From contig CAVRCF010000002.1 of the NCBI GenBank assembly GCA_963719505.1, forward strand, positions 288,001-352,000: a stretch of 64,000 nucleotides of DNA. Reading direction: 5' to 3'. Origin of the DNA: Halobacteriovoraceae bacterium (GTDB lineage Bacteria; Bdellovibrionota; Bacteriovoracia; Bacteriovoracales; Bacteriovoracaceae). Every line of letters begins with the position of its first letter. The stretch's first letter is position 1. Under the pieces are notes generated by a model. The model had not been told where the DNA came from. It ran no database searches and saw nothing but the letters and a program-made list of their open reading frames with translations. The position numbers were made by a program, and so were the translations under genes. Below are positions 1 through 16,184 of this stretch, piece after piece.

Positions 1-1272
1 GCCAGAATTATTATGGAGCGAGCTGGTCTTGATTCTCTAGTGATTCACTCCGGAGAGCTTAAATATTTATTTGAAGATGATATGACCTATCCCTTTAAGG
101 CCAACCCTCTTTTTTTAGAATGGGTTCCCATTGTCGATAACCCAAATTGCTGGATTGTTATCGATAAGGCACAGAAGCCAAAACTTATCTTTTTTCAACC
201 AGTAGATTTTTGGCATTCTGTGCCTGAGGATCCAACTGATTACTGGGTCGATTCATTTGATTTTGTAAAACTGGCCAGTAAAGATGATGTTGATGATCTT
301 CTTCCTGGTGATAAATCAAAGTCGGTTTATTTAGGAGAGTTGACTGAGCTAGCGCAGTCTTTAGGTTTTACAAAAATCAACGACAAGAGTGTTCTCGATT
401 TTCTCTATTTTCACAGAGCTTACAAGACAGACTATCAAATGGACTGTTTACGGGAAGCCAGTCGAATCGGAGTTCTAGGTCACCAAGCGGCGAAAAAGGC
501 TTTTTTAAGTGGTTGTAGTGAATTTGAAATCCACCTCGAGTATCTAAGAGCTGTTGCTCAAACTCAAGAAGAGCTTCCTTACTCCCTTATTATGGGGATG
601 AATAAAAATGCAGCCGTTCTTCATTATCATGGCTTTGATAGAAAAAAATATTCTAAAGAGAATACACATTCATTTCTAATTGATGCAGGAGCTCGTTTTA
701 ATGGTTTTGCCTCTGATATCACAAGAACCTATGCCTTTCGTGATGGAGAGTTTAAAGACTTAATAAAGAGAATGACGACTGATCAAATTGAATTAGTAAA
801 AGCTTTAAAGCTTGGTGAAAGTTATGCTCAAGCCCATTATAAATCTTTAGAAGCGATTGCAAAAGTGTTGATCGATTTTGATTTTGTTCGTGCCTCGCAA
901 GAAGAATTACTAGAGAAAGATTTAGTAAAACCATTTTATCCTCACGGACTTGGTCATCATCTTGGTATTCAAGTCCATGATCTTGGATCAAATCTTCAGG
1001 ACGATAATGGAGTAAATGCTCCCAAGTCTGAAAAGTACCCCACTTTAAGGGCCACAAGAGTTCTCGAGCCTAGAATGGTGCACACAGTTGAGCCAGGACT
1101 TTATTTTATCGATAGTCTCCTTGATGAAGTCAAAAATAGTGATAACTCAAAGCTCTTTAATTGGTCTCGCATAGAAGAATTTAAAAAGTACGGCGGCATA
1201 AGAATTGAGGACGATGTTATTCTTCATTCTGACCGAATTGAGAATATGACAAGAGATCTTGGACTAGAGTAA
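1..1272 (+). CDS. pepQ: Xaa-Pro dipeptidase (prolidase); 5' end probably lies upstream of the window
   Basis: IHSGE...YPFKANP...W, DAGA..G.ASDITRT, PHGLGHHLGIQVHD, TVEPGLYF and GGIRIEDD M24B motifs closely match gammaproteobacterial-type PepQ. The frame is open back to base 1. Confidence 0.93.
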   Translation, partial: ARIIMERAGLDSLVIHSGELKYLFEDDMTYPFKANPLFLEWVPIVDNPNCWIVIDKAQKPKLIFFQPVDFWHSVPEDPTDYWVDSFDFVKLASKDDVDDLLPGDKSKSVYLGELTELAQSLGFTKINDKSVLDFLYFHRAYKTDYQMDCLREASRIGVLGHQAAKKAFLSGCSEFEIHLEYLRAVAQTQEELPYSLIMGMNKNAAVLHYHGFDRKKYSKENTHSFLIDAGARFNGFASDITRTYAFRDGEFKDLIKRMTTDQIELVKALKLGESYAQAHYKSLEAIAKVLIDFDFVRASQEELLEKDLVKPFYPHGLGHHLGIQVHDLGSNLQDDNGVNAPKSEKYPTLRATRVLEPRMVHTVEPGLYFIDSLLDEVKNSDNSKLFNWSRIEEFKKYGGIRIEDDVILHSDRIENMTRDLGLE

Positions 1273-1323
1273 AGGGCCACGATTACTTTTTAAATTTTCA
1301 ATCACTAGTCAAAAGGCTCATCT

Positions 1324-3057
1324 GTGTCGATTAAACAATTCTCAAAGCTTTTTAAACTCAGTAGACAAGAGTGGCCTCTTTTAATAAAAGGACTCATCTT
1401 TTTAGCGATTAGTAGCGCGGCTCTTCTTTTTTATCCATCGACGATTAAAAATATTATCGATCAAGCACTATCTGATAAAAACCAGACTCAGTTAAATCAT
1501 CTGGCCATTTTAGTTCTTGGTATCTTTATTATTCAATCAATTAGTTCCGCTCTCAGATACTACTTCTTCACCCTCGCTGGAGAAAAAACGGTGAAGAGAC
1601 TTAGAGGGACTTTATTTGGTCAAATCTTAGATCAAGAGATGCCTTTTTTTGACAGACAAAAAACAGGGGAATTAATCGGTCGTCTCTCAAGTGATACAGC
1701 AGTTATTCAAAATGCATTGAGCGTAAATATTTCTATGCTGGTGAGAAGTTTCGTTCAAGCCATTGGGGCGCTTGGGATGCTTTTTGTTACCTCAAGTAAG
1801 CTTGCAGCTTTTATTCTTCTTTTGGTTCCACCGATGGCTTTTATAGCTGCTCGCTTTGGAAAAAAAGTAAAGGCCATATCCAAAAAGACTCAAGACCGCC
1901 TGGCCCAATCAACAGCCGTGGCAGAAGAGGGAATTTCTGGAATAAGAACAGTTAAGGCTTTTGCACAAGAAGACTTTGAAAAAAGTCGCTATGAAAGTAA
2001 ACTTGAAGATTCTTTTCTTTTGTCAAAATCAAGAATCGTTGAAGTCGCAAAATTTAGTAATCTCGTCACTCTTTTGGGAATGACAGTTGTGGTTTTTATT
2101 ATTTGGTATGGTGGAACACTCGTTTTAAAAGGTGAACTCAGTGTCGGGACGCTCACTTCGTTTATCCTTTATGTGATGACTTTGTCGATGTCTGTTGGGA
2201 TGCTTGGGAGTTTGTGGACGGATTTTATGGCCGCACTTGGGGCCAGTAGTCGAATATTCGAGCTTCTTGAACTTCCTGTAAGCCCTATCATTAATAAAGA
2301 TGGTCTTGATGTCATAAATGAAGGGAATATTGAATTTAAAGATGTCTTTTTTTCTTATCCAGGAAGAGCGGATATCTCGGTTTTAAAAGGCGTGAGTTTT
2401 TCGGTGAAGGCAAATGAGACGGTAGCAATTGTGGGATCTTCCGGCGGAGGAAAATCTACTATAGCACAGTTAATGATGAATTTTTATGAACTCAGCAGTG
2501 GAGAGATAACTATTGATCACCATCCTATAAAGAACTATAAAACCAAAGCTCTTAGGGAATCTGTTGGTCTGGTTTCTCAAGAGCCGATTCTTATTTCCGA
2601 GTCCATTTACGATAATATCTGCTATTCAAATCCCAAGGCTTCAGAGCAGGAAGTTGAATCAGCTGCCAAGCTGGCTTTTGCCCATGACTTTATCGTAAAC
2701 TTCCCAGAAGGTTATAAGACCTTAGTAGGTGAGAAGGGAATTCAACTCTCTGGTGGGCAAAAACAAAGAATTGCTATTGCTAGGGCCATTTTAAAAGACC
2801 CTAAACTTCTTATTCTCGATGAAGCCACCAGTGCCCTGGATGCTGAAAGTGAATCGATTGTGCAAAAAGCACTGGATAATATTATGAGTCATCGCTCAAC
2901 GGTCGTGATCGCCCATAGGCTCTCAACTGTTAAAAAAGCCCATCGAATCCTTGTTTTAGATCGGGGAGTTATCTCACAAGAAGGCACTCACGAAGAACTC
3001 TTACAAAGTCCTAATGGGTTTTATAAAAAATTAATTGAACATCAGTTTGAAAAATAA
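1324..3057 (+). CDS. ABC exporter, fused TMD-NBD (MsbA/ABCB-like half transporter)
   Basis: Six-TM N-terminal domain, Walker A GSSGGGKST, signature LSGGQKQR, Walker B ILDEATSALD, H-loop AHRLST. GTG start. Confidence 0.92.
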   Translation: MSIKQFSKLFKLSRQEWPLLIKGLIFLAISSAALLFYPSTIKNIIDQALSDKNQTQLNHLAILVLGIFIIQSISSALRYYFFTLAGEKTVKRLRGTLFGQILDQEMPFFDRQKTGELIGRLSSDTAVIQNALSVNISMLVRSFVQAIGALGMLFVTSSKLAAFILLLVPPMAFIAARFGKKVKAISKKTQDRLAQSTAVAEEGISGIRTVKAFAQEDFEKSRYESKLEDSFLLSKSRIVEVAKFSNLVTLLGMTVVVFIIWYGGTLVLKGELSVGTLTSFILYVMTLSMSVGMLGSLWTDFMAALGASSRIFELLELPVSPIINKDGLDVINEGNIEFKDVFFSYPGRADISVLKGVSFSVKANETVAIVGSSGGGKSTIAQLMMNFYELSSGEITIDHHPIKNYKTKALRESVGLVSQEPILISESIYDNICYSNPKASEQEVESAAKLAFAHDFIVNFPEGYKTLVGEKGIQLSGGQKQRIAIARAILKDPKLLILDEATSALDAESESIVQKALDNIMSHRSTVVIAHRLSTVKKAHRILVLDRGVISQEGTHEELLQSPNGFYKKLIEHQFEK

Positions 3058-3067
3058 GGACTACAAA

Positions 3068-3409
3068 ATGCAAAGAAAAGTTTTAGAACATGAAAGTATG
3101 AGTCAGCCGGCTCTTGATAAAATCTACTCTTTTCATTCCGATGTGGTGGAACAAGTTATAGAAGCCGTATTACAGCACAAAGTTGTGGTCGTTGGTATGA
3201 GTGTTAACCCGGTAGTAAAGAAGGCCAAAAACCTTCTCCATCAAAAGGGGATGGAATATAAATATCTTGAGTACGGAAGTTATCTTGTGGGGTGGCATAA
3301 GAGGCTAGCGATAAAATTGTGGTCGGGATGGCCAACTTATCCGCAAATTTTTATAGATGGAAAGCTTATTGGTGGATTTACGGAATTAAAAGACAAGCTC
3401 TCTGAGTAA
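3068..3409 (+). CDS. Glutaredoxin-fold protein lacking any cysteine
   Basis: SGWPTYPQIFIDGKLIGG is the Grx4-like cis-Pro/GG motif. Start moved to ATG 3068 after SD AGGA. No Cys in the translation. Confidence 0.8.
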   Translation: MQRKVLEHESMSQPALDKIYSFHSDVVEQVIEAVLQHKVVVVGMSVNPVVKKAKNLLHQKGMEYKYLEYGSYLVGWHKRLAIKLWSGWPTYPQIFIDGKLIGGFTELKDKLSE

Positions 3410-3414
3410 GAGCT

Positions 3415-3876
3415 TTATCTTTTGACGACTTTCACACCTCGGGCCAAAAAGCTGTATTCAAAAGTAGAACTTGTTACAGCTTCTATCTGGGCTTTTGAGG
3501 CGCCTGCATCCTCAAGGTAGTGGCGAGTATCAGCAATAGAGACTTCTTTACGAGAGATCTCTCCATCTAGCCACACCGTTTTTCCAATAAGGCTTAGGGG
3601 AACAAAAAACTTATAGTCTTTAAACTTTACCCTTAAATCACCCTTGGCTCCTTTGAGTATCATCCAGCATCCTTTGGATGTGCAGACTTTATCGACTTGA
3701 GCTTCCATAACGAGATTTTTATTTTTGTATTTTGAAAATTCTGCAACGACTGACTCAACCTCAATCGCCTTTGGTGCAGTTATCTTCTCGCCGTAAAAAG
3801 GTTTCTCACTCACTGTGTTTTTGGCCACAGCATTAAACGACAAAAGGATTAGAAAAAGGTATTTCATTGTTTTCAT
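3415..3876 (-). CDS. Secreted DUF4920-like protein (OB-fold-like, CxxKGCW motif)
   Basis: Signal peptide, then VCTSKGCWM...RVKFKDY.FFVP...H YLEDAG. Start trimmed to the first ATG after the bfr stop. Confidence 0.75.
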   Translation of the reverse strand: MKTMKYLFLILLSFNAVAKNTVSEKPFYGEKITAPKAIEVESVVAEFSKYKNKNLVMEAQVDKVCTSKGCWMILKGAKGDLRVKFKDYKFFVPLSLIGKTVWLDGEISRKEVSIADTRHYLEDAGASKAQIEAVTSSTFEYSFLARGVKVVKR

Positions 3877-3886
3877 TCTTTTTTTC

Positions 3887-4354
3887 CTACATTTGAGATT
3901 GGTAATAGTTTTGCTCACCAACTTTTTCAATAAGACCAAGCTGGATTTCAATCCACTTGATGTGATCTTCTTCAGTATCTTTTAAAAGAGTGAGAAGAAT
4001 ATTTCTTGTTTCATAATCTTTTTCTGTTTCACATAAACTTATGAGGTCTTTGAGCTGGGCACAGTTTTCAAGTTCATACTTTAAAGACTGCTCAAGCATC
4101 CCTTTGACACTCATGTCGACTTTGAATCCCTCTCTTGAAGCAACATCAGGTTGTCCTTCTAGAAATAAAATTCTTTTAATAACCATATCGGCATGCAGGC
4201 CTTCGTGATCTTTTTCACCATTAATATGAGCATATAGTTTTGTTAAACCCCAGTCTTCATAAATACGAGAATGTAAAAAGTAGATATCCACTGATGTTAA
4301 TTCTTTGGTGAGAAGCTTATTTAAACCATCAATTATTTTTTTATTTCCCTGCAT
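3887..4354 (-). CDS. bfr: Bacterioferritin-family iron storage protein (BfrA/FtnA-like, no heme-ligand Met)
   Basis: EL...YFLHSR.YEDWG, E..HAD..IKRILFLEG.P, DTEEDH..W...QLGLI. Confidence 0.9.
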   Translation of the reverse strand: MQGNKKIIDGLNKLLTKELTSVDIYFLHSRIYEDWGLTKLYAHINGEKDHEGLHADMVIKRILFLEGQPDVASREGFKVDMSVKGMLEQSLKYELENCAQLKDLISLCETEKDYETRNILLTLLKDTEEDHIKWIEIQLGLIEKVGEQNYYQSQM

Positions 4355-4399
4355 TTTGAATCCTTTCTTTTAAGTTTAACATTTTTATTTCAGATGGCA

Positions 4400-7300
4400 T
4401 TAAGCTTTTCGATAACTTTGTATCTTTCTAAGGTATGTCTGCGGTGCATTTAAATAGTAAGCACCTGAATAGACGAGCCACTCATAGATTTTTGTTGGCG
4501 CGATATCAGGTTTTTTATCAATGACATCATAGGCAAAACAATGAAACTTTTGACCATTGTCGTCATAGGCGTCAATTTCAATTCTCTGGTAACCATTGTC
4601 ATCGCACTCAATTTTATCTAAAAAGGCGAGGTCATAGTCGTCGATACTGATCACAAGGCCATAGACTTCATGGCCAGAAGCTTCATACATATCGGCCACG
4701 CCACCGCCTCGGATATCAGAATAGCGAGTATAGCGAATTTCTTTATCGAGCACTTTTGCCTTACAGATAAGTTCTGAACTTGGACAACGATTTTTTATTT
4801 GTGAAAGATCCATGTTTGAGCCAAAACCAAAAACAAGATTTTTTAAAATGGGTTTACTCTTTGCATATCCGCCGCCTCCAGGAGTGCTAATGAAGATAGC
4901 TTCATCCGTCAAAAAGTCCCTTTGAAAACTCTCTGGAAGTTCAATAAGTTTTCCCGCCTCTTCAATTTGATTAAGCCCTCTTTTTGCCATGCCTCCGCCT
5001 TTTATTCCATGAGGAGGAATTTCTCTGGCCTGAGTCAGCATGCTCACTTGCATAGGTTCTAAAAATCGTAGACGTCTGTATATTCCATCGCCACCGTTAA
5101 ATTGTCCTGCACCACCACTTCCATGTCTAATCGCCATCAGCTCCAGTCTAACCGGATAGCGCATCTCTAAAACTTCAGGGTCTGTTAATAGGGAGTTGGT
5201 CATATTGACTTGAACAGCTGAGGCACCATGATTTGTTTGAGAGGCCCCACTTCCTCCGCCAATCGTTTCATAGTACTGATGGTTATCATTTCCAAAAGTT
5301 AAATTATTCATTGTCCCCTGACAGTGGGCTTTTATGTCGAGGACTTCAAAAATGACGTCACATAGGGCTTGAGATGTTTCTACATTCCCCGCCACGATGG
5401 CGCTATCAAGACTGGGGGACAGCAGGCTATCTTTAGGAATAAGAAGCTCCACGGCCTGCATGATTCCATTATTGAGGGGAATATTCTCATTGATCAAGCA
5501 GCGCAGACAAAAAAGTAATGTGGCTTTAACAACCGGTATAGGAGCATTAAAATTATTATCTTGAATAGGAGAGGTCCCATTGAAATCAAAGATAAACTTA
5601 TCCTGTGACTTTTTAATCTCTAAAGTAATTTGTCTTTGGTCGGTGATATGTTTAGTAATTTTTTTGGGTTTAATATCTTTTAGCGCCAATTGAATTTTTT
5701 TAAAAGAGTAGGACAGAATCTCGTTAGACATTGTGTCGAGATAATCACTGCCATAGAGTTTCGCGAGATCTTTAATCTCTTGTGCCCCTTTTAAATTAGC
5801 AGAGAGCTTGGCCTGTATATCGTGCTTATTGAGTTGGTAGTTTCTAACGGGGTACTCAACTTGCGTGAGAATACTTTTTAATTTTTCTTTGTTTAGTTTT
5901 CCAAAATCAGAAATCAAAGTTGGGGCAATCACCACGCCCTCTTCGGAGAGTTTTTTGCTATCTCCTGGCATTGAGCCCGGAGTGGTTCCGCCAATATCAG
6001 CGTGATGTCCTCTTGAAGCCACCCACATAATGAGTTTATTGTTTTCAAAAATAGGGGTTATAATTGTAATATCTGGTAGGTGAGTTCCTCCATAATGGGG
6101 AGAGTTTGTAATAAAACTATCACCTTCTTTGAAAGAGAAATCTTTTATCAGTGACTTTACAGCATCTCCCATGGATCCCAAATGAACAGGGATATGAGGA
6201 GCATTGGCCACAAGTTCTCCCCCAGCAGTGAAAAGAGCGCAAGAGAAGTCCGCCCTCTCTTTTATATTAACGGAACGTGCGAGCTTTTGAAGACTTTGTC
6301 CCATCTGCTCTGCGATAAATTGAAAGCGCTGATAAAAAATTTCAAGCTCAACGGCTTTATCTCTTTTTTGCGCTTTATTTTTTGTTTCAATATTTTGTAT
6401 TTTCCATGAACCGTCACTAAAGTTTTTCGCCTGCCAGCCGCGCTCCACAATAATGGAGGTGTTATTTTCGGCCAAGGAATGAAAACCATTTATTTCCTTT
6501 TCAGGATTGGATGGAAGATTTACAGGTTGAGTTACAGACTTTAAAATCCTGACACTAATTGTTTCGCACTCAACCTGTGTTGGCGCTTCAAGTCCGAAAG
6601 TTCTCTCATATTCTTTTTGAAAAAGAGTTTTTGCAGACTCTAAGTTTTCAGCTTTTATGGGGATTTCGTGATCACTTCCAATGGATTTAAGCATGAAAAT
6701 ATTTTCAAAACTAAATTCAGAAAAAGCAAAGGCGCCCTTCGCTCTCTCTCGAAGGACTTTATGTCCCACCTCAAGCTTATCGCTAAAGACCATTGCATGA
6801 TCGGCCACGCCGATGCCATAAGCTGATAAAACGGCGCTGAAGGGGTGAGTGAAGACTTCTTTTATACTGAGGCTTTCAGCAACTTTTATCGCAAGTTGCC
6901 CACCGGCTCCACCAAAACTGACCAGACAGAAATCTTGGGGATCAAAGCCCGACTCAATAGAGACTTTCCTAATCGCGCGAGACATGGTCTCCACAGCAAC
7001 ATCTAAAAATCCCTGGGCAATATCTTTGGGATCCATTTGGGTGGTTAAAGAAAGCTCTTGGAATTTTTCTTCAACGATTTTTATATCTAATCCTTGATCT
7101 CTTTTTGGTCCAAAGACTTTTGGAAACTTTTCTGGATCAAGACGCTTTAAAAAAAGATTGGCATCAGTGACAGTAAGGGGACCACCATTTCTGTAACAAG
7201 CAGGTCCTGGGTAGGCACCGGCTGAATCAGGTCCCACGATAAAGCGTCCATGATCAATGGATAAAACGGATCCACCACCAGCGGCAACCGTATGAATGTC

Positions 7301-8233
7301 GGCCATCGGGGTGAGAAGTTTATGGCCGTAAAAATTTGGTTCAGAATTAATTTTTAAATCCCCATGATAGAGGGCCACATCAGTTGAGGTACCACCCATA
7401 TCAAAAGTGATAATTTTATCTATTCCCTTATCTTTTGCCGCTTTGATAGCGCCAATTAATCCTCCAGCAGGACCAGACAAAAGAGCGCTGTAGCCTTTTA
7501 AGTCTTCACCTCGACAAAGACTTCCATCCGATTGCATATAGTAGATATTTTCAATTCCTAAAAGGTTAGATAGCTCACTGGTGTATTGCTGTAAAAAGGG
7601 AGTGAGATAACTATCGATCACGGTGGTCTCGGTGCGACTAATATATTTTGCTTTAGGACTAACCTCACAGGAGACACTGACAAAATCAAATCCCATCTCA
7701 GTGGCCAATTCTTTTAGCGCCATTTCATGTTGAGGATTTACTGTTGAGTGCATCAAAGAGATGGCCAGTGATTTTATCCCAAGGTCAAGAATTCTTTGAA
7801 ACTCAAAACGAGCGATATCTAAATCTAGAGGAATAAGCACTTTACCATTAGCATCCATTCTTCCTTGAATATGTGTGACTTCTTTATAGAGAGGTTTTTT
7901 CTTTTTTATATCAATAGCAAAAAGATCATCTCTATTTTGTTGTTTAATCTCTAAAACATCTCGGTGACCTAAAGTGGTGACAAGCGCACAGTCGATCCCT
8001 TTTTTTTCTAAGAAGGCATTTGTTGCGATAGTCGTTCCAAGTCTGAGCTCTTTGATACTGTCTTTGAAGTTATTGTGTCCAAGGATATCTTCAATGCCCT
8101 GAGCGACGACTGATTTGTAGTGGGGGGATTTTGACAGGAGCTTATGCACCTTGTGCGCTCCAGCATTGTTTACCGCAATAATATCGGTGAAGGTTCCTCC
8201 GCAGTCAATCCAGAATGTCCATTGATCTTTCAT
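4400..8233 (-). CDS. ATP-dependent 5-oxoprolinase (hydantoinase A+B fused) with C-terminal gamma-glutamylcyclotransferase domain
   Basis: IDCGGTFTD, SGPAGG, FDMGGTSTD, HTVAAGGGS, NIKERADFSCA, HIPVHLGS, GGTHLPD and TPGGGGY. The final ~145 aa carry FGFGSNM...GGGVAD...VYG...LDKIE...GY.R (GGCT fold). Confidence 0.9.
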   Translation of the reverse strand: MKDQWTFWIDCGGTFTDIIAVNNAGAHKVHKLLSKSPHYKSVVAQGIEDILGHNNFKDSIKELRLGTTIATNAFLEKKGIDCALVTTLGHRDVLEIKQQNRDDLFAIDIKKKKPLYKEVTHIQGRMDANGKVLIPLDLDIARFEFQRILDLGIKSLAISLMHSTVNPQHEMALKELATEMGFDFVSVSCEVSPKAKYISRTETTVIDSYLTPFLQQYTSELSNLLGIENIYYMQSDGSLCRGEDLKGYSALLSGPAGGLIGAIKAAKDKGIDKIITFDMGGTSTDVALYHGDLKINSEPNFYGHKLLTPMADIHTVAAGGGSVLSIDHGRFIVGPDSAGAYPGPACYRNGGPLTVTDANLFLKRLDPEKFPKVFGPKRDQGLDIKIVEEKFQELSLTTQMDPKDIAQGFLDVAVETMSRAIRKVSIESGFDPQDFCLVSFGGAGGQLAIKVAESLSIKEVFTHPFSAVLSAYGIGVADHAMVFSDKLEVGHKVLRERAKGAFAFSEFSFENIFMLKSIGSDHEIPIKAENLESAKTLFQKEYERTFGLEAPTQVECETISVRILKSVTQPVNLPSNPEKEINGFHSLAENNTSIIVERGWQAKNFSDGSWKIQNIETKNKAQKRDKAVELEIFYQRFQFIAEQMGQSLQKLARSVNIKERADFSCALFTAGGELVANAPHIPVHLGSMGDAVKSLIKDFSFKEGDSFITNSPHYGGTHLPDITIITPIFENNKLIMWVASRGHHADIGGTTPGSMPGDSKKLSEEGVVIAPTLISDFGKLNKEKLKSILTQVEYPVRNYQLNKHDIQAKLSANLKGAQEIKDLAKLYGSDYLDTMSNEILSYSFKKIQLALKDIKPKKITKHITDQRQITLEIKKSQDKFIFDFNGTSPIQDNNFNAPIPVVKATLLFCLRCLINENIPLNNGIMQAVELLIPKDSLLSPSLDSAIVAGNVETSQALCDVIFEVLDIKAHCQGTMNNLTFGNDNHQYYETIGGGSGASQTNHGASAVQVNMTNSLLTDPEVLEMRYPVRLELMAIRHGSGGAGQFNGGDGIYRRLRFLEPMQVSMLTQAREIPPHGIKGGGMAKRGLNQIEEAGKLIELPESFQRDFLTDEAIFISTPGGGGYAKSKPILKNLVFGFGSNMDLSQIKNRCPSSELICKAKVLDKEIRYTRYSDIRGGGVADMYEASGHEVYGLVISIDDYDLAFLDKIECDDNGYQRIEIDAYDDNGQKFHCFAYDVIDKKPDIAPTKIYEWLVYSGAYYLNAPQTYLRKIQSYRKA

Positions 8234-8239
8234 GCAACT

Positions 8240-8268
8240 ATCTTAAGGCCCAAAAGAGGGATTGTCTA
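8240..8268 (-). promoter_or_regulatory. Putative sigma70 promoter directly before the oxoprolinase ATG (leaderless)
   Basis: Minus strand TAGACA-N17-TAAGAT-N6-ATG. Confidence 0.5.
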
Positions 8269-8285
8269 AAATTTGGGGGGCTCTT

Positions 8286-9149
8286 TTACTGTGACCAGAT
8301 ATTTAAAAATCTAAAGATCTCGTCATAAACTGTCTGACTTGTTTCATTCATATTCTTTTTATTGATAGCAACAGAGATTGTGTGGAGGCCTAATTTAAAA
8401 CTTGAAAACTCCTCATCTTGCACCATCATCCCTTTGGCCACACTTTGATAGGCCACCTTGGTAGGAATAAGACCCACTCCTAAGCCTGAATTGATAAGAC
8501 TTACGACTGTTTCAAGGTTTTCACAGATATGGTGATGAGGAAAACTTTTTAAGATGCTGGTGGTGTCTTGCTCAATACTTTGGGGAAAAAGAATAAGATG
8601 ATCTTTAAATTGTGGTGCTAGTGACTTACTTCTGTAAAAAGAGAAGTGATCTTCATAGACAACTTTGGAGATGATATTTTTATCCGTTATTGCTCCTACG
8701 TAAACGGCTAAATCAATCTCCATCTTCTTTAACTTTTTTATAATCTGAGCACTTCTGGTGGTGTAGAGGGAGAGTTCAAGGTCAGAACTTAAAGTTTTTA
8801 AATATTTGATGAAGTCAGGGAAAAAGTATCTTGAGATACTATCGTAAGTTCCAACGCTAATTTGTCCTTTGAGGCTCGTTTGTTGTGACTTTAAGGTAAA
8901 TTCAAACTTGTCTGTTTGATTGAGAAAATCCTTACTAAAGTCATAAACTCTCTGGCCTTCAGCGGTCATCTCAATCCCTTTTTGTGATCGAACAATGAGC
9001 TGGGTGCCAAGTATTTCTTCTAACTGTTTGATGACTTTAGTCATTTGAGGTTGGCCTATTTTAGCAGCTCGAGCACCTTGGCTAATGGAACCTTTTTCAA
9101 TAGCTAAAACATAGTAGTTCAGTTTTTCAATATGATCTCTCAGTCTCAC
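8286..9149 (-). CDS. LysR-family transcriptional regulator
   Basis: N-terminal HTH GSISQGAR..IGQPQMTKVIKQLE..LG..L..R, followed by a substrate-binding domain. GTG start. Confidence 0.9.
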   Translation of the reverse strand: MRLRDHIEKLNYYVLAIEKGSISQGARAAKIGQPQMTKVIKQLEEILGTQLIVRSQKGIEMTAEGQRVYDFSKDFLNQTDKFEFTLKSQQTSLKGQISVGTYDSISRYFFPDFIKYLKTLSSDLELSLYTTRSAQIIKKLKKMEIDLAVYVGAITDKNIISKVVYEDHFSFYRSKSLAPQFKDHLILFPQSIEQDTTSILKSFPHHHICENLETVVSLINSGLGVGLIPTKVAYQSVAKGMMVQDEEFSSFKLGLHTISVAINKKNMNETSQTVYDEIFRFLNIWSQ

Positions 9150-9219
9150 ACAAGCCTTCTTTTTTGTATTCGTTAAAAGAATGTACCTGTATCACTTTTA
9201 AAAGAGCATTAGCAATAAT

Positions 9220-9265
9220 AAAAAAAGATCGCTTAAATCTAAAACTTAGAGGCGATCATTTTTTT
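9220..9265 (-). terminator. Intrinsic terminator-like hairpin after the pyridoxamine-oxidase-like gene
   Basis: GATCGC..TCTAA-aac-TTAGA.GCGATC stem flanked by A7 and T7 runs. Confidence 0.55.
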
Positions 9266-9276
9266 ATCATTTAATT

Positions 9277-9747
9277 TTAAAACGTTTCGTGTTCGGTCAC
9301 ATCAGGTGTTTTAGAGCTGTGAATCGATTTTTTCACTTCCTCTTTAAAAGTTTCTTTGTCGACCTTCCTGTCCCAGTGTTCTCCATGATCAACTTTCATC
9401 TCAATAAGAGCAACATTTTCTTCATCTTCATACCAAGCACTGGCGTAATCGTTCCAAAGTTTCGAAGTCAAATTGCTATTGGAAACAAGTTTTGCTTCCC
9501 CAGACATGGAAACAAACGTTCCATCTTTTGGGCAAGAAAATGTAATATTGGCACTTTTATGATCGCTCAAAAGAGCTGCTTGAGATGATTTTTTATTGGT
9601 GAAAAACCAAAGCTTGTTGTCGTAATCATTTTGAATGATCTGCATGGGTCTTGTGTCTAGATGAGTCTTATCTTGAATGGTTAACATCCCCACACCGATT
9701 GGATTAATTAAGTTCCAGATTTTTTCTTTGTGAGCTTTTGTTCCCAT
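9277..9747 (-). CDS. Pyridoxamine 5'-phosphate oxidase-like FMN-binding split-barrel protein (general stress protein 26 type)
   Basis: GMLT...TRPM...LWFFT...FVSMSG.A...LW...AWY...EHWD. SD AAGGAG. Confidence 0.8.
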   Translation of the reverse strand: MGTKAHKEKIWNLINPIGVGMLTIQDKTHLDTRPMQIIQNDYDNKLWFFTNKKSSQAALLSDHKSANITFSCPKDGTFVSMSGEAKLVSNSNLTSKLWNDYASAWYEDEENVALIEMKVDHGEHWDRKVDKETFKEEVKKSIHSSKTPDVTEHETF

Positions 9748-9874
9748 TTTATTCTCCTTGGTTGTTTTAAGTTATTACAACCTTATAAGAGGACTGGGAG
9801 TGATTCAAGCCAACAGGTTAAATGTGTACAAAACTACGAAAGGTCTAAATTAAAGAAATATATCGATAGAGTTT

Positions 9875-10123
9875 TTATTGGGAGTCCAACCTAGGTCTAC
9901 CTTTTTTCGTCGATCTTTTCTGTTGTCTAAGCTTCCACCGTCTAAACCTTGATTCACCTAATTCTTTTAAGAGAAATTTTTCAACCTCTCCTGGAGTAAG
10001 GTCAAAGAGTTTTTTTATCTCAAGAAAAGAGACTTTGTCTTCAATAGACATTTTGACAAGTTTTTCTTTCTCTTTAAGACCGAGGCTGTCGATTTTTAAT
10101 TTTAACTCTTTTGATAAACCCAT
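9875..10123 (-). CDS. Small basic protein, TIGR03643/DUF2805-like
   Basis: KM..EDKVSF..I...F.L...EV......EL....F.RW pattern. Confidence 0.55.
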   Translation of the reverse strand: MGLSKELKLKIDSLGLKEKEKLVKMSIEDKVSFLEIKKLFDLTPGEVEKFLLKELGESRFRRWKLRQQKRSTKKGRPRLDSQ

Positions 10124-10163
10124 CCCTCAAATTAACATAGAGAAAGAGGCTTTGATATGGTGT

Positions 10164-11031
10164 CTAAGTTTTACTCAACAACGCACGGGCAAGTTTGTAG
10201 GAGCTGCAAAAAATAGCCCCTTTGTGATTCATAAAGGTTGAGTCCGCTCTATTTAAGTCTAAAGGTCTAAAATGGTAGTCGCTATTATGTCCGCCTGCTT
10301 CTGATTGGATGATGGAGCTGGCCGCAAAATCCCAAAGACTTCCACCGCCCAAAGTGCTCTTGGGGTGTTTGTAGTAAATTGCCGGTGCAAATTCAATTGT
10401 AGAGATGCCATTCATAACAGCGCCGCCCAGAGGATGGAGTTCTACTTGGTCTAGTCCGAAACTCTTCGCATTTTTTAAAAGCATCTGTCTTTGTTGTTCA
10501 TAATTTGAAAGTTTTAAAAAGCTTTGATCAAATAATAACGTAAGTGTGTGAGACTTCTCTTTTACCCTAAAAGGGGATGAGTTTTTGAAAGCGCCTTGAC
10601 CTTTTATCGCGTGATAAAGAGTCTCAGACCTAGGGTTGTAGACAACACCGATTACGGGCGTTCCATCTTTTGAAACCAAGGCAATAGATGTGCTGTACCC
10701 ATCTTGGTTTTGGCTAAAGGCCAAAGTACCATCGAGGGGATCGATGCACCAAAAATAGTCTTTTGACAATCTTGAGTTATCATCTGTACTTTCTTCAGTT
10801 AAAAGCCCGATGTCATATTTTTTTAAGAGTTGGTGTGAGTCCCTCTAAAATCGTGTTTTGAGCTTTTATATCAGTTTCAGTAACGACACAAGAAGCTAAA
10901 TTTTCACCCCCTTCTTTGGAATGCACTTGTACTTTTTGACCTTGCTTGAGACCTATAATCTTTCCAGCGTTAAGAGCCGCCGTTTTAGCGACTTCGCATA
11001 AAATAGTTAAATCATCATTTGATAAGATCAT
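10164..11031 (-). pseudogene. Inositol monophosphatase/CysQ-family phosphatase split by a +1 frameshift in a T7 run (10818-10824); probably a sequence error
   Basis: N-part has VVTETD; C-part has WCIDPLDGT and LWDFAA. Removing one base gives continuous LKKYDIGLLTEESTDDNSRLSKDYFWCIDPLDGT. Confidence 0.85.
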
Positions 11032-11971
11032 TTAAAACCTTCTCCTTCATTTTTTCAGAATATGCATTTATTTTAGCATGATGAGGTGACCATCCTTTGA
11101 GAAATCGGTAGAAGTCGCACCATGCATAGGGATAGAGTTCTCTCCACTGGTCCTCTAGTTGCTGGCCATCGAGATGGGGATGAAAAAAAGAGAGCGCAGT
11201 TTTTAATTCTTCAAAGTAGACTTTAAGACAATCTTGGTCGCGATCAAAAAGTTCTGTCTCATAGTAAATACTACTAAGGAAATAAGCGAGATCTTTTACA
11301 CCCACTCCGGATCCGACGTATTGAAAATCGACAGCACTTACACTCGTTGATCCAAAGAGGAAGTTTGAAAGCTTTGCATCCCCGTGAACAATGGTCTGGT
11401 GTTTTGAGGATGAAAGTTTTTTATCAATTGAATAGGCGAGATCTTTGAGTTGTAAATCCTCCAGGACTTCTAACTCCTCAGGCCTTGTTTCAAGATGCCA
11501 GTAGGTTCCTGTGCTCCATAGATCATCATACTTTACTCCCATGTATTTTGCGTGAAAAGTGGCCAGCCATTTTAAACATAGCTTTACATCACTCCAGTCA
11601 AGAGAGTCTTTAGGGTGTTGATCACGATCTTTTAAATCTTCTAGGATCAAAAAATGAGAGTCATTAACTTCTCCCTTGCCGATTAACTGAGGGGAGTAGG
11701 CATGCTCAATAATCGTGTTGTGATTGGCGTACCAGTTCATCTCGACTTGGTAGGATTTGACCTTTCTTTGATGAGAGAGATTCGAATTCCAACCACGAGG
11801 ATGATCGAGATGATTGGGAAATTTAATTAATTTTAAAATAACAGACCGATCATCAAGGGTAAGTCTTTGAACAGTGCCGTATCCACTCCAAAGATTTTGT
11901 ATCAACTCTTGCTTTAAAATTTTTTGGCAACCAGTGAGTTTTAAGACCTCCGATTGAATATTTTTTTCCAT
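11015..11971 (-). CDS. APH/choline kinase-like phosphotransferase (EcKL-like)
   Basis: LWSGYG, LILEDL, HGDAKLSNF, VDFQYVG.G.GVKDLAYF. Overlaps the downstream phosphatase start. Confidence 0.82.
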   Translation of the reverse strand: MEKNIQSEVLKLTGCQKILKQELIQNLWSGYGTVQRLTLDDRSVILKLIKFPNHLDHPRGWNSNLSHQRKVKSYQVEMNWYANHNTIIEHAYSPQLIGKGEVNDSHFLILEDLKDRDQHPKDSLDWSDVKLCLKWLATFHAKYMGVKYDDLWSTGTYWHLETRPEELEVLEDLQLKDLAYSIDKKLSSSKHQTIVHGDAKLSNFLFGSTSVSAVDFQYVGSGVGVKDLAYFLSSIYYETELFDRDQDCLKVYFEELKTALSFFHPHLDGQQLEDQWRELYPYAWCDFYRFLKGWSPHHAKINAYSEKMKEKVLNDLIK

Positions 11972-12070
11972 GGCCCAGCTTAATAAACTAAAGAACCAAA
12001 GGCCACAGCAAGGGCATCTTCAACCTTAAGAAAAAAGTGGTTAAAGTCTTTTTCATTTTATGAAATTTTC

Positions 12071-12098
12071 TTAAGAAAACGCCTGTAACTACCGATAA
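12071..12098 (+). promoter_or_regulatory. sigma28 (FliA)-like promoter
   Basis: TTAAG-N15-ACCGATAA versus consensus TAAA-N15-GCCGATAA. Confidence 0.55.
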
Positions 12099-12287
12099 GT
12101 AGGTATATTTAAAGCCAGATTTTAGGCCAAAATGGCCAGTTAACTTGGCACTATGGTGAGGACTTCTTAAGAACGTTACGCCAGCTTTAAATTAAGTTAT
12201 GAATAAAATCAGATACTTATGATCTTTCTTAAGAAGAAAGACAAAAACTTAAGAAAACTAAAGGGAAGGGAGTTAAAATTAATTGAA

Positions 12288-14973
12288 ATGATTAGAACCT
12301 TAATTTTTATCCATTTTCTTATAGCTTTTAGCTCCTGTTCGAGTCCTTCGACTGAAGGGGATGATGGACTTATCACCGGTGGTGATACCAATATGGGAAC
12401 TATTTCTAAAATTGATGGGATCTATCTTTTAGAGCCACTTGTAAGTCCTGGTGCAGATCCAACTCCCTTAATTAATATCACAGGTGTCGCCTCTGGCGAT
12501 ACCGTTTCAGTTTTTAGCGATATTACATGTTCTACTTTGGTAACGTCTGAAATGGCGACGGGGGAGACGGTTGAAGTCTCTATTCCGACATTAACGATTG
12601 GAACGCATAGATTCTATGCCAAAAGAACAAAAGAGTCAGAGAGTAGAAGCTCAGACTGTTCCACTTTATTTTTAGACTACACTTTGGAAGGTATTTCAAT
12701 TACCGGCGTAGAGGATGATCTTACAGCTGCCATGAGCAAAACCTTCACATGGGGTTGTGCAGGAACCGCTTCGTGTGAGTATCGATTTGCTGTGAATACC
12801 AGTGAAACTTTTGAGTTCTCAACTGAAAGCTTTGATGCCACTACAACCACGACATACTCAAGTGGCTCCGGAGATTTTTATATTCATCTTCAAGCCCGCG
12901 ACTCAAGTGACAACACTATTGAAAGTGGAGTTTATAGTTATCAATTTGTTTTGGATAATACCTCTCCAGTCGTTACAGCGAACACTATTGCAGCTGGTAC
13001 TTATGGAGTTACAGATATGGTCGAAGTCAGTGTTAATTTTGACGAGAATATTCTCGTGACAGGAAGCCCTAGAATTCAATTAAATTTTGAAACTGAATCT
13101 GCTTCACCGACCTACGCCGTTTATGCAAGCGGTAGCGGATCACAGACACTTGTTTTTCAATACACTGTCGCTTTAGGTGACGAAGATACAAATAATATTT
13201 CAAGCCAAGCTTCAATTGATGTAAACGATGGGACTCTCACTGACGAATTAGGAAATGAACTCAACTATACTTTAGCGACAACAAGCTACAGTGATGCTTT
13301 TGTCGATGGAATCTCTCCAAGCATAATAAGTATAACAGTTCCGGCCAATACTTACTTCTTTGGGAGAAACGCTACCTATTACTGTGAATTACTCAGAAGC
13401 GGTTGTGGTTACTGGTGAACCAAGAATTGAATTAAACTTTGAATCACAGTCGAGTTCTCCCATTTTTGCCACATACGGGGCAGGCAGCGGAACAAGCTCT
13501 TTAACTTTTAATTATATTATCGCCAGTGGTGACTTTGATGCCAACGGAATTGATCTTGTCTCGACCATAGATTTAAACGGTGGCTCACTGGCTGATTCTG
13601 CTGGAAACAATGCGACGACAACCTTAACATCGACAAATTTCTCAAGTGTTTTAGTCGACTCACAAGCTCCCTACATAACCTCTTTTGTCGAGCCGGCCAA
13701 TGGAACTTACGCCAATGGGGGAGAGCTTTTATTTCAAGTCAACTTCTCTGAAGCCGTCACTATTAGTGGAACTCCAAAAATTGGTATTAACCTTGGCGGA
13801 TCAACTGTCTTTGCCACTTATCAATCGGGTTCAGGCAGTACGGGACTCGAGTTTAGCTATGCCATTGTTGCTGGAGACTCAGACAGTGATGGTATTACAC
13901 TCATAAGCACTAGTGTCGACGTAAGCACAGGTTCAATAACGGCAGTGAGCGATTCTAATCCTTCGGCACTAGACTTTCAAGCTTACCTAAACTCCATGAG
14001 TGGAGTCCTTATTGATACAAGTGGTACTATTACCGCTCCCGATCAGGTTATGGGGGTAACAACAGCTCCGACAACTGATAGTAGTGAGCTGAGGGTTTCT
14101 TGGTTAAAAGCAAATGGAAATGGCTTTGATATTATTAATTATAGTGTTCAATATCGTGAACAGGGAACGAGTACGTGGAATAGTTTAAATCCTAATCCAG
14201 TAAATAACTCGGCGACCATTAGTGGGCTCTCCGCTGGTGTGATTTATCAGATCAGAGTCGCAGCAAATAACGGACTTCTCGGTGCATACTCAGCGATATC
14301 AAATGCTGAGATTTTTGATATTCTTCAACTCAATCCTATCGCCTGGTTAAGTGCTACAGATATAACTAATGGTGGGAGTGAACCTTTAAACGATGAAAAA
14401 ATTGATCAGTGGGAAGACATTACGGGGGCTGCAAGTGCGGCAACAGAGACGAACCCAGCCAATCAGCCAGTTTACAAAACAAATGTTCAAAACGGTCTTC
14501 CAGGAGTTCGCTTTGATAATTTAGCGACGGGACTGCAGGGAACGTTTAATCGAAGTATAGGGACGGATTTAACTTTTGTTATCGTCGGTCAGTTCGATAC
14601 AGGCTCAAATGATAAATGTCTTTTTGAGTTCAGTAACGGTGGAAATGCCAGAGGATTTTTTATCGACAGAAGATATGCTAGTAACAACATGTTTTCTCCG
14701 GCTTTAACTCGAGGTGAATTTAAACTTTGGAGAATTCAAGATACAGGAACCACAGCGAAGGTAACCGAAAATGGAGTTACCGAGCTCTTTTCTGGTGGCA
14801 CAAACTTTAATACCGATTTCACTGGGACGGGTAGCTATACTCTTGGAGATGACCAAACAGGTGGAAATAGAATGAATGGCTTTATTGGAGAGTTTTTAAT
14901 TTTCGACAAAGCTCTTTCAGCTTCAGAGATTTCAAAGCTTGAAACCTACCTAAAAAATAAGTGGGGCCTTTAG
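12288..14973 (+). CDS. Large surface lipoprotein/adhesin (Ig-like repeats, FN3, C-terminal LamG/ConA-like domain); frameshift near 13359-13364
   Basis: Lipobox FSSC after MIRTLIFIHFLIA. Three repeats of V.F.E.V.V.G.P.I.L...A.Y..GSG...L.F.Y....GD.D span both ORFs. FN3 (W....NG..I.NY.VQYR...GL..G..Y..RV.A.N), then WL.A.DI...W.D...G.IGE.LIFD.AL...YL..KWG. Confidence 0.8.
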
Positions 14974-16184
14974 TGGTTGAGTTTAAAATACTGACTTGTC
15001 ATCTCTTGTAGTTGGGGTGTCCACTGAGGTGAGAATCCATTCATAAGAGCTTTTTTTCTTAAGTCTACAATAATCGGTAACAGCTTTGTTTGAAGCTTTC
15101 TGTAGTACTTATTTTTAAACTGATTATTATAAGCAAAAAACTCCTCCATAATTTTACTTTCCCAAAGTTCAAAAAAGATAAGAGGAGACACACTGGTTGG
15201 CAGGTTTGAAAACAAGTGTTGGGTGTGTTCTGGAGAGTTGGAGTTGAGGAGGCTAGAAACCCACAGGGTTAGCTCTTCTCCTAGGCTTCGGGACTCTAAG
15301 TCAATTTTTGCTCTTTCAAATCTATCCGTAAGCTCATCTGTTTGGCCAAGCTTGAGAAGTTCATCAAGGATTAATTTGGCTTTAAGTTGTTTATTAATCT
15401 TAGCTTCTTTTATGAGCTTCAGTCTTGTTGTTTTAATTTCATTTTTTCGCATAAAGATCATGAGGTTTTTATAGTCGAGTCTATTTCGATACAGTCCAAC
15501 GATCTTTAAAGTGTCGTTAAAAATATTACTGGGTTTTACAATATAATTTTCTTCATCCAAAGTGTATGAGATGTCATTACTTCCCTTCTTTAGTTTGAGC
15601 TCTTTTTTTACTTTTCTTTCTGAGTCTTTCCACTTTCTATAAAGGACTTTGTTGTTAAAAAGTCTTTTCATCTTTATTGTTTTTGCGATATTTTTAATAC
15701 CAATGATTATAGCTGGTATTAGTATTCCCGGCTGTAAAACCTCATACAAAACGATGAGGACTGGAGAACCAATACTAACGGCCAAAGCTTTCATCGGAAT
15801 TTCTGTGATCTCTATAGTCATAATAATAATAGAGATGGCCAATCCATTTTTCCGGCTAAGAATTTTAGCTTCTTCTTTTATATGGTGAACCATCTCTTTG
15901 ACTTTTTCCCAGGCTGAGCTTTTTTGGTAATGAGAATTTGATTCTATGTCGGCCATAATTTTTTGGGCCAGGGAGTCGATGATAGCATCGTTATACTTTG
16001 GATCGATACTGTCTTCAATTCCTTTGATACTCTCGTATTGTTTATGAAGAATCTCGTTTTGAAGTTTTATTCTCTCAAGGCTCAAGAGGAGATCGTCATC
16101 AATTGGAGCATGAGAATAACTACCAGCAAAACTAGATGAGATAAGCGATAGGAATAAGGCCAACTTGATAAAAATATTTAACAT
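14970..16184 (-). CDS. Hypothetical protein with signal peptide and internal hydrophobic segments
   Basis: 404-aa ORF, signal peptide ending SFA, hydrophobic stretch at about aa 115-165; no motif recognised. Confidence 0.65.
   Translation of the reverse strand: MLNIFIKLALFLSLISSSFAGSYSHAPIDDDLLLSLERIKLQNEILHKQYESIKGIEDSIDPKYNDAIIDSLAQKIMADIESNSHYQKSSAWEKVKEMVHHIKEEAKILSRKNGLAISIIIMTIEITEIPMKALAVSIGSPVLIVLYEVLQPGILIPAIIIGIKNIAKTIKMKRLFNNKVLYRKWKDSERKVKKELKLKKGSNDISYTLDEENYIVKPSNIFNDTLKIVGLYRNRLDYKNLMIFMRKNEIKTTRLKLIKEAKINKQLKAKLILDELLKLGQTDELTDRFERAKIDLESRSLGEELTLWVSSLLNSNSPEHTQHLFSNLPTSVSPLIFFELWESKIMEEFFAYNNQFKNKYYRKLQTKLLPIIVDLRKKALMNGFSPQWTPQLQEMTSQYFKLNH

Follow-up and report, generated by a model that had tools for sequence, protein, structure and literature searches.

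A 5-oxoprolinase-type protein fused to a gamma-glutamylcyclotransferase-type domain in a Halobacteriovoraceae bacterium and its relatives

Gene and domain organization

The stretch of DNA analyzed here (the window; 64,000 nucleotides of contig CAVRCF010000002.1, positions 288,001 to 352,000, from assembly GCA_963719505.1 of a Halobacteriovoraceae bacterium, a marine organism of predatory type, genome G000) carries on its minus strand, at 4400..8233, a complete gene in which a 5-oxoprolinase-type enzyme continues without interruption into a gamma-glutamylcyclotransferase (GGCT)-type domain. The gene is a single open reading frame (ORF) with an ATG start, encoding 1,277 amino acids (aa) plus the stop codon, and its translation is protein P0001.

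Pfam places Hydant_A_N at residues 7-180 (7694..8215; E 9.5e-48), Hydantoinase_A at residues 200-479 (6797..7636; E 5.7e-90), and the Hydantoinase_B/oxoprolinase domain at residues 627-1124 (4862..6355; E 1.3e-165), all on the minus strand and all in one chain in the A-B order, with TPGGGGY at the end of the last. The first DxGGTxxD motif, DCGGTFTD (residues 10-17), lies in Hydant_A_N and the second, FDMGGTSTD (residues 277-285), in Hydantoinase_A; both are invariant in 16 fused proteins, and motifs of this type are known as the actin-like (ASKHA) ATP-binding motifs. OPLAH and yeast OXP1, the eukaryotic-type 5-oxoprolinases, have the same three domains in the same A-B order on one chain, a likeness set by architecture and motifs. 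Confirmed eukaryotic 5-oxoprolinases are described in PMC8453981 as fused A-B polypeptides of about 1250 aa, and the introduction of PMC13274462 quotes eukaryotic-type homologues in 115 of 984 prokaryotic genomes. Known OPLAH-type enzymes stop at HyuB (about 1250-1288 aa), and none has been described with a cyclotransferase, whereas the HyuAB part here measures 1124 aa and is followed by one.

Between the end of HyuB and the tail there is neither a stop nor a frame change. The tail comprises residues 1125-1277 (153 aa; window 4403-4861). The junction alignment and translation put a linker, AKSKPILKN, at residues 1124-1132 (4838..4864, minus strand), leading into a GGCT-fold domain at residues 1133-1273 (4415..4837, minus strand), which Pfam, sequence, and fold identify as the counterpart of residues 18-162 of human GGCT. 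On the fused protein, GGACT (PF06094) matches residues 1134-1237 (E 1.3e-8; 35.9 bits, with the cut-off at 22.8) and AIG2_2 (PF13772) residues 1189-1270 (E 1.3e-7; 32.4 bits, with the cut-off at 27), while Pfam gave no match on P0001 for ChaC (PF04752) at E <= 0.1 and did not find the LamB_YcsF (PxpA) domain there. An earlier note on this DNA had proposed that one frame joins a 5-oxoprolinase to a GGCT domain, and the single 1277-aa ORF with its five Pfam families bears this out. Every motif named at the time is present in the translation after ISTPGGGGY (LVFGFGSNMD, RGGGVADMY, EVYGLV, LDKIEC, NGYQRIE, and APTKIYEW); the GGCT-like tail past TPGGGGY likewise stands, but it is slightly longer than the approximately 145 aa (4400-4840) first estimated.

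Residues 480-626 of P0001 (window 6356-6796) form an inter-domain region that is shortened or diverged in the fused clade and in its tail-less members. In all of these the HyuAB part spans about 1120-1160 aa and has no match to PF19278 (Hydant_A_C). Relatives of the HyuAB part at 40-45% identity are about 1190-1230 aa long, many of them with PF19278.

Fold and conserved residues of the tail

Searched alone with phmmer against all PDB sequences, the tail matched human GGCT with E 1.9e-9 (tail positions 9-149 against GGCT residues 18-162), at an identity of about 25%. The earlier note had assigned the catalytic position to the Glu of LDKIE, and in the phmmer alignment this residue, Glu1209 (codon at 4607..4609, minus strand), indeed falls on column 98 of human GGCT, which is a Glu in 2pn7 and a Gln in the 3cry chain. 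With it, Tyr1215, Tyr1235, and Tyr1250 align with human Tyr105, Tyr125, and Tyr139. Glu1209 is invariant in the 16 fused proteins as well as in all rows of a 61-row alignment, which we built from six fused-clade tails (including the window's own and fragment P0019) together with 55 related stand-alone proteins, about 140-195 aa long, taken from the 150 best of 2011 representative hits. The invariant columns of that alignment, in tail numbering, are Gly68, Glu85, Tyr91, Tyr111, and Tyr126. The YGS[NL] motif near the N terminus of GGCT is its substrate-binding motif; FGFGSNM of the tail aligns with FAYGSNL of human GGCT, with G, S, and N invariant, and FGFGSN itself (residues 1135-1140; 4814..4831, minus strand) matches FAYGSN at human residues 20-25. 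The coordinates of the linker, of FGFGSN, and of the Glu codon were checked by translating the window DNA.

An AlphaFold2 model of the tail, computed from the 61-row alignment, reached a pLDDT of 95.1 and a pTM of 0.89, and its fold is that of GGCT, as had been supposed. When the model was compared with the PDB by Foldseek, ranks 1 to 6 were all human GGCT chains (TMq 0.84-0.85; root-mean-square deviation, 1.8-2.0 Å), followed by weaker matches to Bacillus subtilis YkqA (TMq 0.78), ChaC2 (0.68), GGACT (about 0.52), and AIG2-like proteins. Human GGCT (C7orf24; PDB 2pn7, 2i5t, 2rbh, and 3cry) is thus the best match of the tail among solved structures in both sequence and fold, and shares with it the [YF]GSN motif, the catalytic Glu column, and the Tyr105, Tyr125, and Tyr139 columns. 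The differences are that human GGCT is a stand-alone protein of 188 aa while its counterpart here forms the C terminus of a 1277-aa enzyme, that the tail has Phe for the motif Tyr and RCPS for RNPS, and that it is without the first 17 and the last ~25 human residues. At tail position 26, within RCPS, Cys is nearly invariant in bacterial relatives, whereas human GGCT has Asn. By profile, predicted fold, motif, and aligned catalytic Glu, the tail is a member of the GGCT/AIG2-like superfamily.

These data also bear on whether the tail is an enzyme at all. It might instead be a noncatalytic ligand-binding or structural appendage that modulates the oxoprolinase, for example by sensing 5-oxoproline or a gamma-glutamyl compound or by promoting oligomerization. 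GGCT-like C-terminal domains do occur in allophanate hydrolase of K. lactis and in urea amidolyase (TMq 0.46-0.47), the motif Tyr is replaced by Phe, and the tail has been lost in three places while the HyuAB gene was retained (see below). But the catalytic Glu and the three pocket Tyr columns are invariant in fused and stand-alone relatives alike, the full domain including the GSN backbone motif has been kept, and the tail is conserved at least as well as the enzyme part, so that we regard an inactive appendage as quite improbable.

Conservation of the fusion

Searching proteins of 702-2235 aa with only the tail as query, we obtained 16 clusters, the window's own included, all 1272-1291 aa long and all with the five Pfam families, at 54-84% tail identity. 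A search with the HyuAB part alone (query residues 1-1124), for which 120 of 8000 scored candidates were listed, approached the junction from the other side. GGACT and/or AIG2_2 was found in 29 of the 34 closest clusters (at least 48% identity), in each case on a single polypeptide of 1272-1299 aa; the other five of the 34 are tail-less, at 1121-1157 aa, and none of the remaining 86 listed relatives (at most 45% identity; about 1150-1440 aa) has the tail. One HyuA-HyuB protein, the 1438-aa P0187, carries a GntR-type helix-turn-helix domain (PF00392), which would make it an enzyme with a transcription-factor domain attached.

The fused clusters come from NCBI, ENA, JGI, and Logan assemblies, and their named carriers are Halobacteriovoraceae and Bacteriovoracaceae metagenome-assembled genomes (MAGs), Halobacteriovorax sp., and Pseudobacteriovorax antillogorgiicola. 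In public records they appear only as "5-oxoprolinase" or "hydantoinase B/oxoprolinase family protein." A scan of species representatives added seven loci, from Bacteriovorax/Halobacteriovoraceae MAGs and one Silvanigrellales MAG (tail identity 46%), in each of which a single frame covers both HyuB and the tail; five of these genes have their full length, the other two being truncated by contig ends. The fused junction is further present in genomes G054, G074, G093, G307, and G417. In G307, where a TAA had been flagged inside the ORF, the frame is intact at 1291 aa and the flagged triplet is the gene's own stop codon. As seen in the junction alignment, the linker of the fused clade varies in sequence yet is nearly fixed in length, leading into [FY]G[SN], while tail-less relatives and outgroups end 0-10 residues past GGGG[YFW]. 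In 13 of the 15 fused relatives the tail is more similar to that of the window protein than the HyuAB part is (equal in one, lower in one), and because of this we consider the tail to be under at least equal constraint.

If a sequencing or assembly error had removed a stop codon between two genes, the fusion would be an artifact. We looked in relatives for such a stop, which the earlier note had named as a concern, and found none among the 29 single-polypeptide clusters or the seven loci. An in-frame junction with the same linker length recurs in 28 other protein clusters from independent assemblies, in the seven species-representative loci, and in the five genomes just listed. Since the junction is conserved in independent assemblies, an artifact is excluded for all practical purposes. 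The fusion is a real, conserved, and clade-restricted joining of two known enzymes of consecutive steps.

A split gene was also considered for the tail-less genome G061, where the 1157-aa gene (locus L014, G061:C10, 2796-6269) is overlapped at its stop by 4 bases by another ORF (6266-6739), located where fused forms carry the GGCT tail. This candidate was rejected: the ORF encodes a GNAT acetyltransferase rather than a GGCT, and there is no tail match anywhere in that genome.

A profile search for longer proteins found 45 with a tail-type domain. PF02538 is present in 20 of them, all from the same clade and with at least 55% tail identity; a HyuAB-GGCT fusion outside the clade was not found in this search, which is weak evidence. 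Among the other longer proteins, P0287, P0289, P0290, P0291, and P0293, each of about 350 aa and two of them from Mycolicibacterium, join a poly-gamma-glutamate hydrolase-like domain (PF05908) to a GGCT-type domain and represent a second possible consecutive-step fusion in gamma-glutamyl metabolism. Further GGCT-type relatives (P0129, P0094, P0288, P0292, and P0297) are fused to TIR, HEPN_AbiV, Eco57I-type restriction/methylase, AAA/SMC-like ATPase, and DNA methyltransferase domains, combinations that look like anti-phage defense rather than metabolism.

Distribution and history of the tail

In a sample of 101 genomes of the family, 13 gave a tail match, but only in four (G000, G054, G074, and G093) did it lie in frames of 1275-1280 aa; the remaining matches, at 24-31% identity, are to stand-alone genes in frames of 153-243 aa. 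Hydantoinase_B occurs in 10 of the 101 genomes, fused in four and unfused in six. In the phylum sample, all four genomes with a fused-type tail (E <= 1e-20) belong to the window's family, and none of the 300 genomes of other families has one. Outside these samples the fusion is also found in Oligoflexia, namely in Pseudobacteriovorax and Silvanigrellales, and the fused taxa represent two classes of Bdellovibrionota by NCBI taxonomy. Pseudobacteriovorax and Silvanigrellales are not known as classical obligate periplasmic predators.

We inferred a quick maximum-likelihood tree (LG+G4, SH-aLRT support) from the HyuAB columns of 29 fused and five tail-less rows plus 10 outgroups, hand-picked from the 86 lower matches with the other 76 left out. 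The 34 fused and tail-less rows form one clade with a support of 100. As to the tail-less proteins, P0181 falls in a basal polytomy, P0170 groups with P0173, and P0172 with P0176 are sister to three fused proteins; the drawn tree needs four label changes, starred branches forcing three of them. Mutual identity among fused tails is 45-84%, whereas their best stand-alone relatives among the representative hits reach at most 38-39% over the full domain, and two shorter partial matches reach 44%. Because of the tree placements, and because the fused tails are closer to one another than to stand-alone domains, the simplest history would be one gain of the tail followed by two or three losses, with the root set by the chosen outgroup.

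Neighborhood and gamma-glutamyl genes of the genome

The fused gene is flanked by a LysR-family regulator gene 52 bp upstream (8286..9149, minus strand), which is not conserved in relatives, and by a ferritin-like (bacterioferritin-type) gene 45 bp downstream (3887..4354, minus strand), a homologue of which adjoins the fused gene in one of seven other loci. About 1 kb from the fused gene lies a 124-aa ORF with a glutaredoxin domain (3035-3409, plus strand; E 2.5e-8), adjoined by an ABC exporter (1324-3057) and a PepQ-type Xaa-Pro dipeptidase (13-1272). The three could provide a thematic link to thiol or peptide metabolism; they are not conserved in other loci. A scan of 3300-9900 gave 14 promoter-like sites, against 14.4 expected by shuffling, and no terminator-like site between the fused gene and the ferritin-like gene.

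When the ORFs of loci L004-L010 that reach 90 aa were all set against window positions 1-16000, no neighbor proved common to the seven other loci, the ferritin-like gene in L007 being the only shared one. The LysR gene and the glutaredoxin-like ORF, neither of which is shared by other loci, were accordingly dropped as evidence from operon logic. The neighborhood is silent on function because the neighbors are not conserved.

At 12219-14973 of the window (plus strand), two adjacent overlapping ORFs of 399 and 537 aa have a high content of Thr, Ser, and Gly and repeats of a "VNFSEAV...TG.P.I.LN" unit. Together they resemble a single large secreted repeat protein, perhaps with an interruption or frameshift at 13360-13418.

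At the level of the genome, which is 83.5% complete, the HyuAB part of the fused gene is the sole Hydantoinase_B match in G000, and LamB_YcsF (PxpA) was not found. PxpABC, the widespread prokaryotic 5-oxoprolinase, shares the presumed ATP-dependent opening of 5-oxoproline but consists of unrelated proteins. With one HyuB and no PxpA, the HyuAB module is therefore the only 5-oxoprolinase candidate seen in G000 at that completeness. A ChaC family gene was not found in G000 either. The genome does encode an E. coli-type Glu-Cys ligase (gshA), GSH-S_ATP proteins (likely glutathione synthetase), and one GGT, which by sequence would supply the remaining steps of the gamma-glutamyl cycle. Across the family sample, gshA was found in 7 of 10 HyuB-positive and 26 of 91 HyuB-negative genomes, which are related and not independent, and GGT in 74 of 101, including all four with the fusion.

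G000 has a second GGCT-like gene, a stand-alone one of 213 aa (AIG2_2 E 4.3e-11; GGACT E 1.2e-9) about 106 kb upstream of the window (locus L002, G000:C2:184514-187831, positions 1417-2058), which shares approximately 25% identity with the tail. This gene has a 4-base overlap with the end of a 414-aa ORF, a putative histidine kinase judging by an H-box recognized by eye.

Proposed function

GGCT frees 5-oxoproline from gamma-glutamyl compounds, and oxoprolinase turns 5-oxoproline into glutamate. We propose that the fused protein is a bifunctional enzyme converting gamma-glutamyl-X via 5-oxoproline to glutamate, and assign this a probability of roughly 0.68; both activities and the intermediate are what we infer from sequence and structure models. 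In the C-terminal GGCT-type domain, with Glu1209 as general acid/base, a gamma-glutamyl compound (most likely a gamma-glutamyl-L-amino acid) would cyclize by attack of its free alpha-amino group on its own gamma-amide, so that 5-oxo-L-proline and the amino acid are released. ATP-dependent phosphorylation of the lactam by the N-terminal eukaryotic-type HyuA-HyuB module, followed by hydrolysis, would then yield L-glutamate, for a predicted net reaction of gamma-Glu-X + ATP + 2 H2O -> Glu + X + ADP + Pi. Fusion fixes expression at 1:1, with a 9-residue linker separating the site that would form 5-oxoproline from the enzyme that would dispose of it.

A joining of this kind has precedents. The C-domain of allophanate hydrolase and urea amidolyase, as well as the GGCT plus poly-gamma-glutamate hydrolase proteins described above, are GGCT-fold domains joined to an enzyme of the same pathway, albeit with other partners and other chemistry and with no hydantoinase or oxoprolinase involved.

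Structure prediction was also applied to the two partners as a complex, using HyuB residues 620-1124 and tail residues 1125-1277 with paired 16-row alignments. The median ipSAE was 0.38, compared with 0.00 for the best of three controls, runs agreed in at least 86% of contacts, and the pLDDT of the partner was at least 83. Of 157 solved complexes, 116 reach the ipSAE mark, as do 2 of 215 mismatches; at scores of 0.60 or less, only 18 of the 157 solved complexes reach it, along with both passing mismatches. The prediction lends weak support to a defined HyuB-tail interface and is silent on the geometry of channeling. The identity of X and any channeling of 5-oxoproline are things that we infer.

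Several observations weigh against a bifunctional enzyme. Where the YGSN motif has its Tyr, the window protein and most Halobacteriovoraceae members have Phe, either residue occurring across the clade. On the oxoprolinase side, no NCBIfam equivalog reaches its cut-off on the fused protein, and the best solved relative of HyuAB by sequence is 7hk5 (E 3e-106), which is labeled an N-methylhydantoinase. The genomes do not generally couple the two functions: within the family sample, none of the six genomes with unfused HyuAB has a tail match, and none of the nine carrying only a stand-alone GGCT-like match has HyuB. The fusion is rare, at 4 of 101 sampled family genomes and 4 of 401 sampled phylum genomes, and the two other genomes searched from the window's genus, 87% and 90% complete, gave neither a tail match nor HyuB. 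It is also dispensable, tail-less forms appearing at three places on the tree as the result of repeated loss. Finally, no conserved neighborhood speaks for the proposed pathway, and gshA, found in three of the four fused genomes, was not found in the fourth, G054 (92% complete).

The identity of the HyuAB partner is one point on which the proposal might fail. HyuAB might be an ATP-dependent lactamase or hydantoinase whose substrate is not 5-oxoproline, with the association with GGCT following some other logic. In PMC8453981 the family is described as functionally diverse, holding N-methylhydantoinases, caprolactamase, and carboxylases besides oxoprolinases, with "oxoprolinase" being an often mistaken annotation. 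To this can be added the name of the closest solved relative, the shortness of the clade (about 80 aa less than its 1190-1230-aa relatives), and the absence of the PF19278 match that many of those relatives give. Yet HyuAB scores only 295.8 against a cut-off of 1000 with the caprolactamase equivalog model and 145.9 against 1500 with that for acetophenone carboxylase, and G000 offers no further 5-oxoprolinase candidate. Moreover, 5-oxoproline is the only known product of GGCT-fold cyclotransferases, so that the fusion itself argues for 5-oxoproline as the substrate. We consider a different substrate highly improbable.

The other point concerns the substrate of the cyclotransferase. The domain might act on a gamma-glutamyl compound of another kind and still hand 5-oxoproline to the oxoprolinase; candidates would be glutathione (ChaC-like), gamma-glutamylamines or epsilon-(gamma-glutamyl)lysine (GGACT-like), poly-gamma-glutamate fragments, and gamma-D-Glu-meso-DAP from peptidoglycan. 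Without a ChaC gene, the role of direct glutathione degradation appears vacant in G000. GGCT, ChaC2, GGACT, and yeast ChaC, all among the fold matches of the tail, release 5-oxoproline according to entry titles and known biochemistry, the PF05908 fusions (5 of the 45 longer proteins) indicate that the domain serves other gamma-glutamyl substrates, and the Cys of RCPS in place of the human Asn hints at a somewhat different pocket. On the other hand, although ChaC, ChaC2, and GGACT share with GGCT the fold superfamily and the product, the tail is nearest to human GGCT (E 1.9e-9; TM 0.85) and clearly farther from ChaC2 and GGACT (TMq 0.68 and about 0.52). D-5-oxoproline, which would arise from D-Glu substrates, is not known to be a substrate of the ATP-dependent 5-oxoprolinase. 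A substrate outside the gamma-glutamyl-L-amino acids thus seems unlikely, if still worth keeping in mind.

As for where the substrate of the proposed bifunctional enzyme would come from, the earlier note had suggested prey glutathione. This would be one option among several and has no specific support, because the genome apparently makes its own glutathione, and from the gene content the gamma-glutamyl cycle of the carrier itself would be at least as plausible a source. A bolder version pictures a two-site salvage machine, in which 5-oxoproline would pass from the GGCT pocket to the HyuA/HyuB sites of a dimer without equilibrating with the cytoplasm, and in which ATP hydrolysis would make the breakdown of imported gamma-glutamyl peptides irreversible. 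The peptides would derive from prey glutathione via GGT or be gamma-glutamyl dipeptides of prey peptidoglycan, and gshA, gshB, and GGT would complete a Meister-type cycle. We regard this picture as speculative and doubtful.

Discussion

What is new here is the combination of HyuAB with GGCT, both component enzymes being known already. The absence of a characterized example, which the earlier note had presumed, agrees with our literature searches: we found no description of a HyuAB-GGCT fusion in the full-text literature searched, subscription journals lying largely outside that scope. We attach moderate weight to the finding, given that the fusion is rare and dispensable and that nothing points to new chemistry; fusions of consecutive enzymes are common.

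Nonetheless, the fusion can be read as a "Rosetta stone" link that would tie a bacterial GGCT-type family to the disposal of 5-oxoproline. This family comprises about 2000 representative clusters at E <= 1e-3, and we know of no studied member. In the other direction, the fusion would be independent evidence that this bacterial HyuA-HyuB clade is a true 5-oxoprolinase, in a family whose annotations are otherwise unreliable. Removal of 5-oxoproline costs ATP, and the fused protein would be a compact single-polypeptide system for asking whether this intermediate is channeled. If our reading is right, a few marine Bdellovibrionota would hold all steps of the gamma-glutamyl cycle, which in its Meister-type form is usually taken as a eukaryotic feature.

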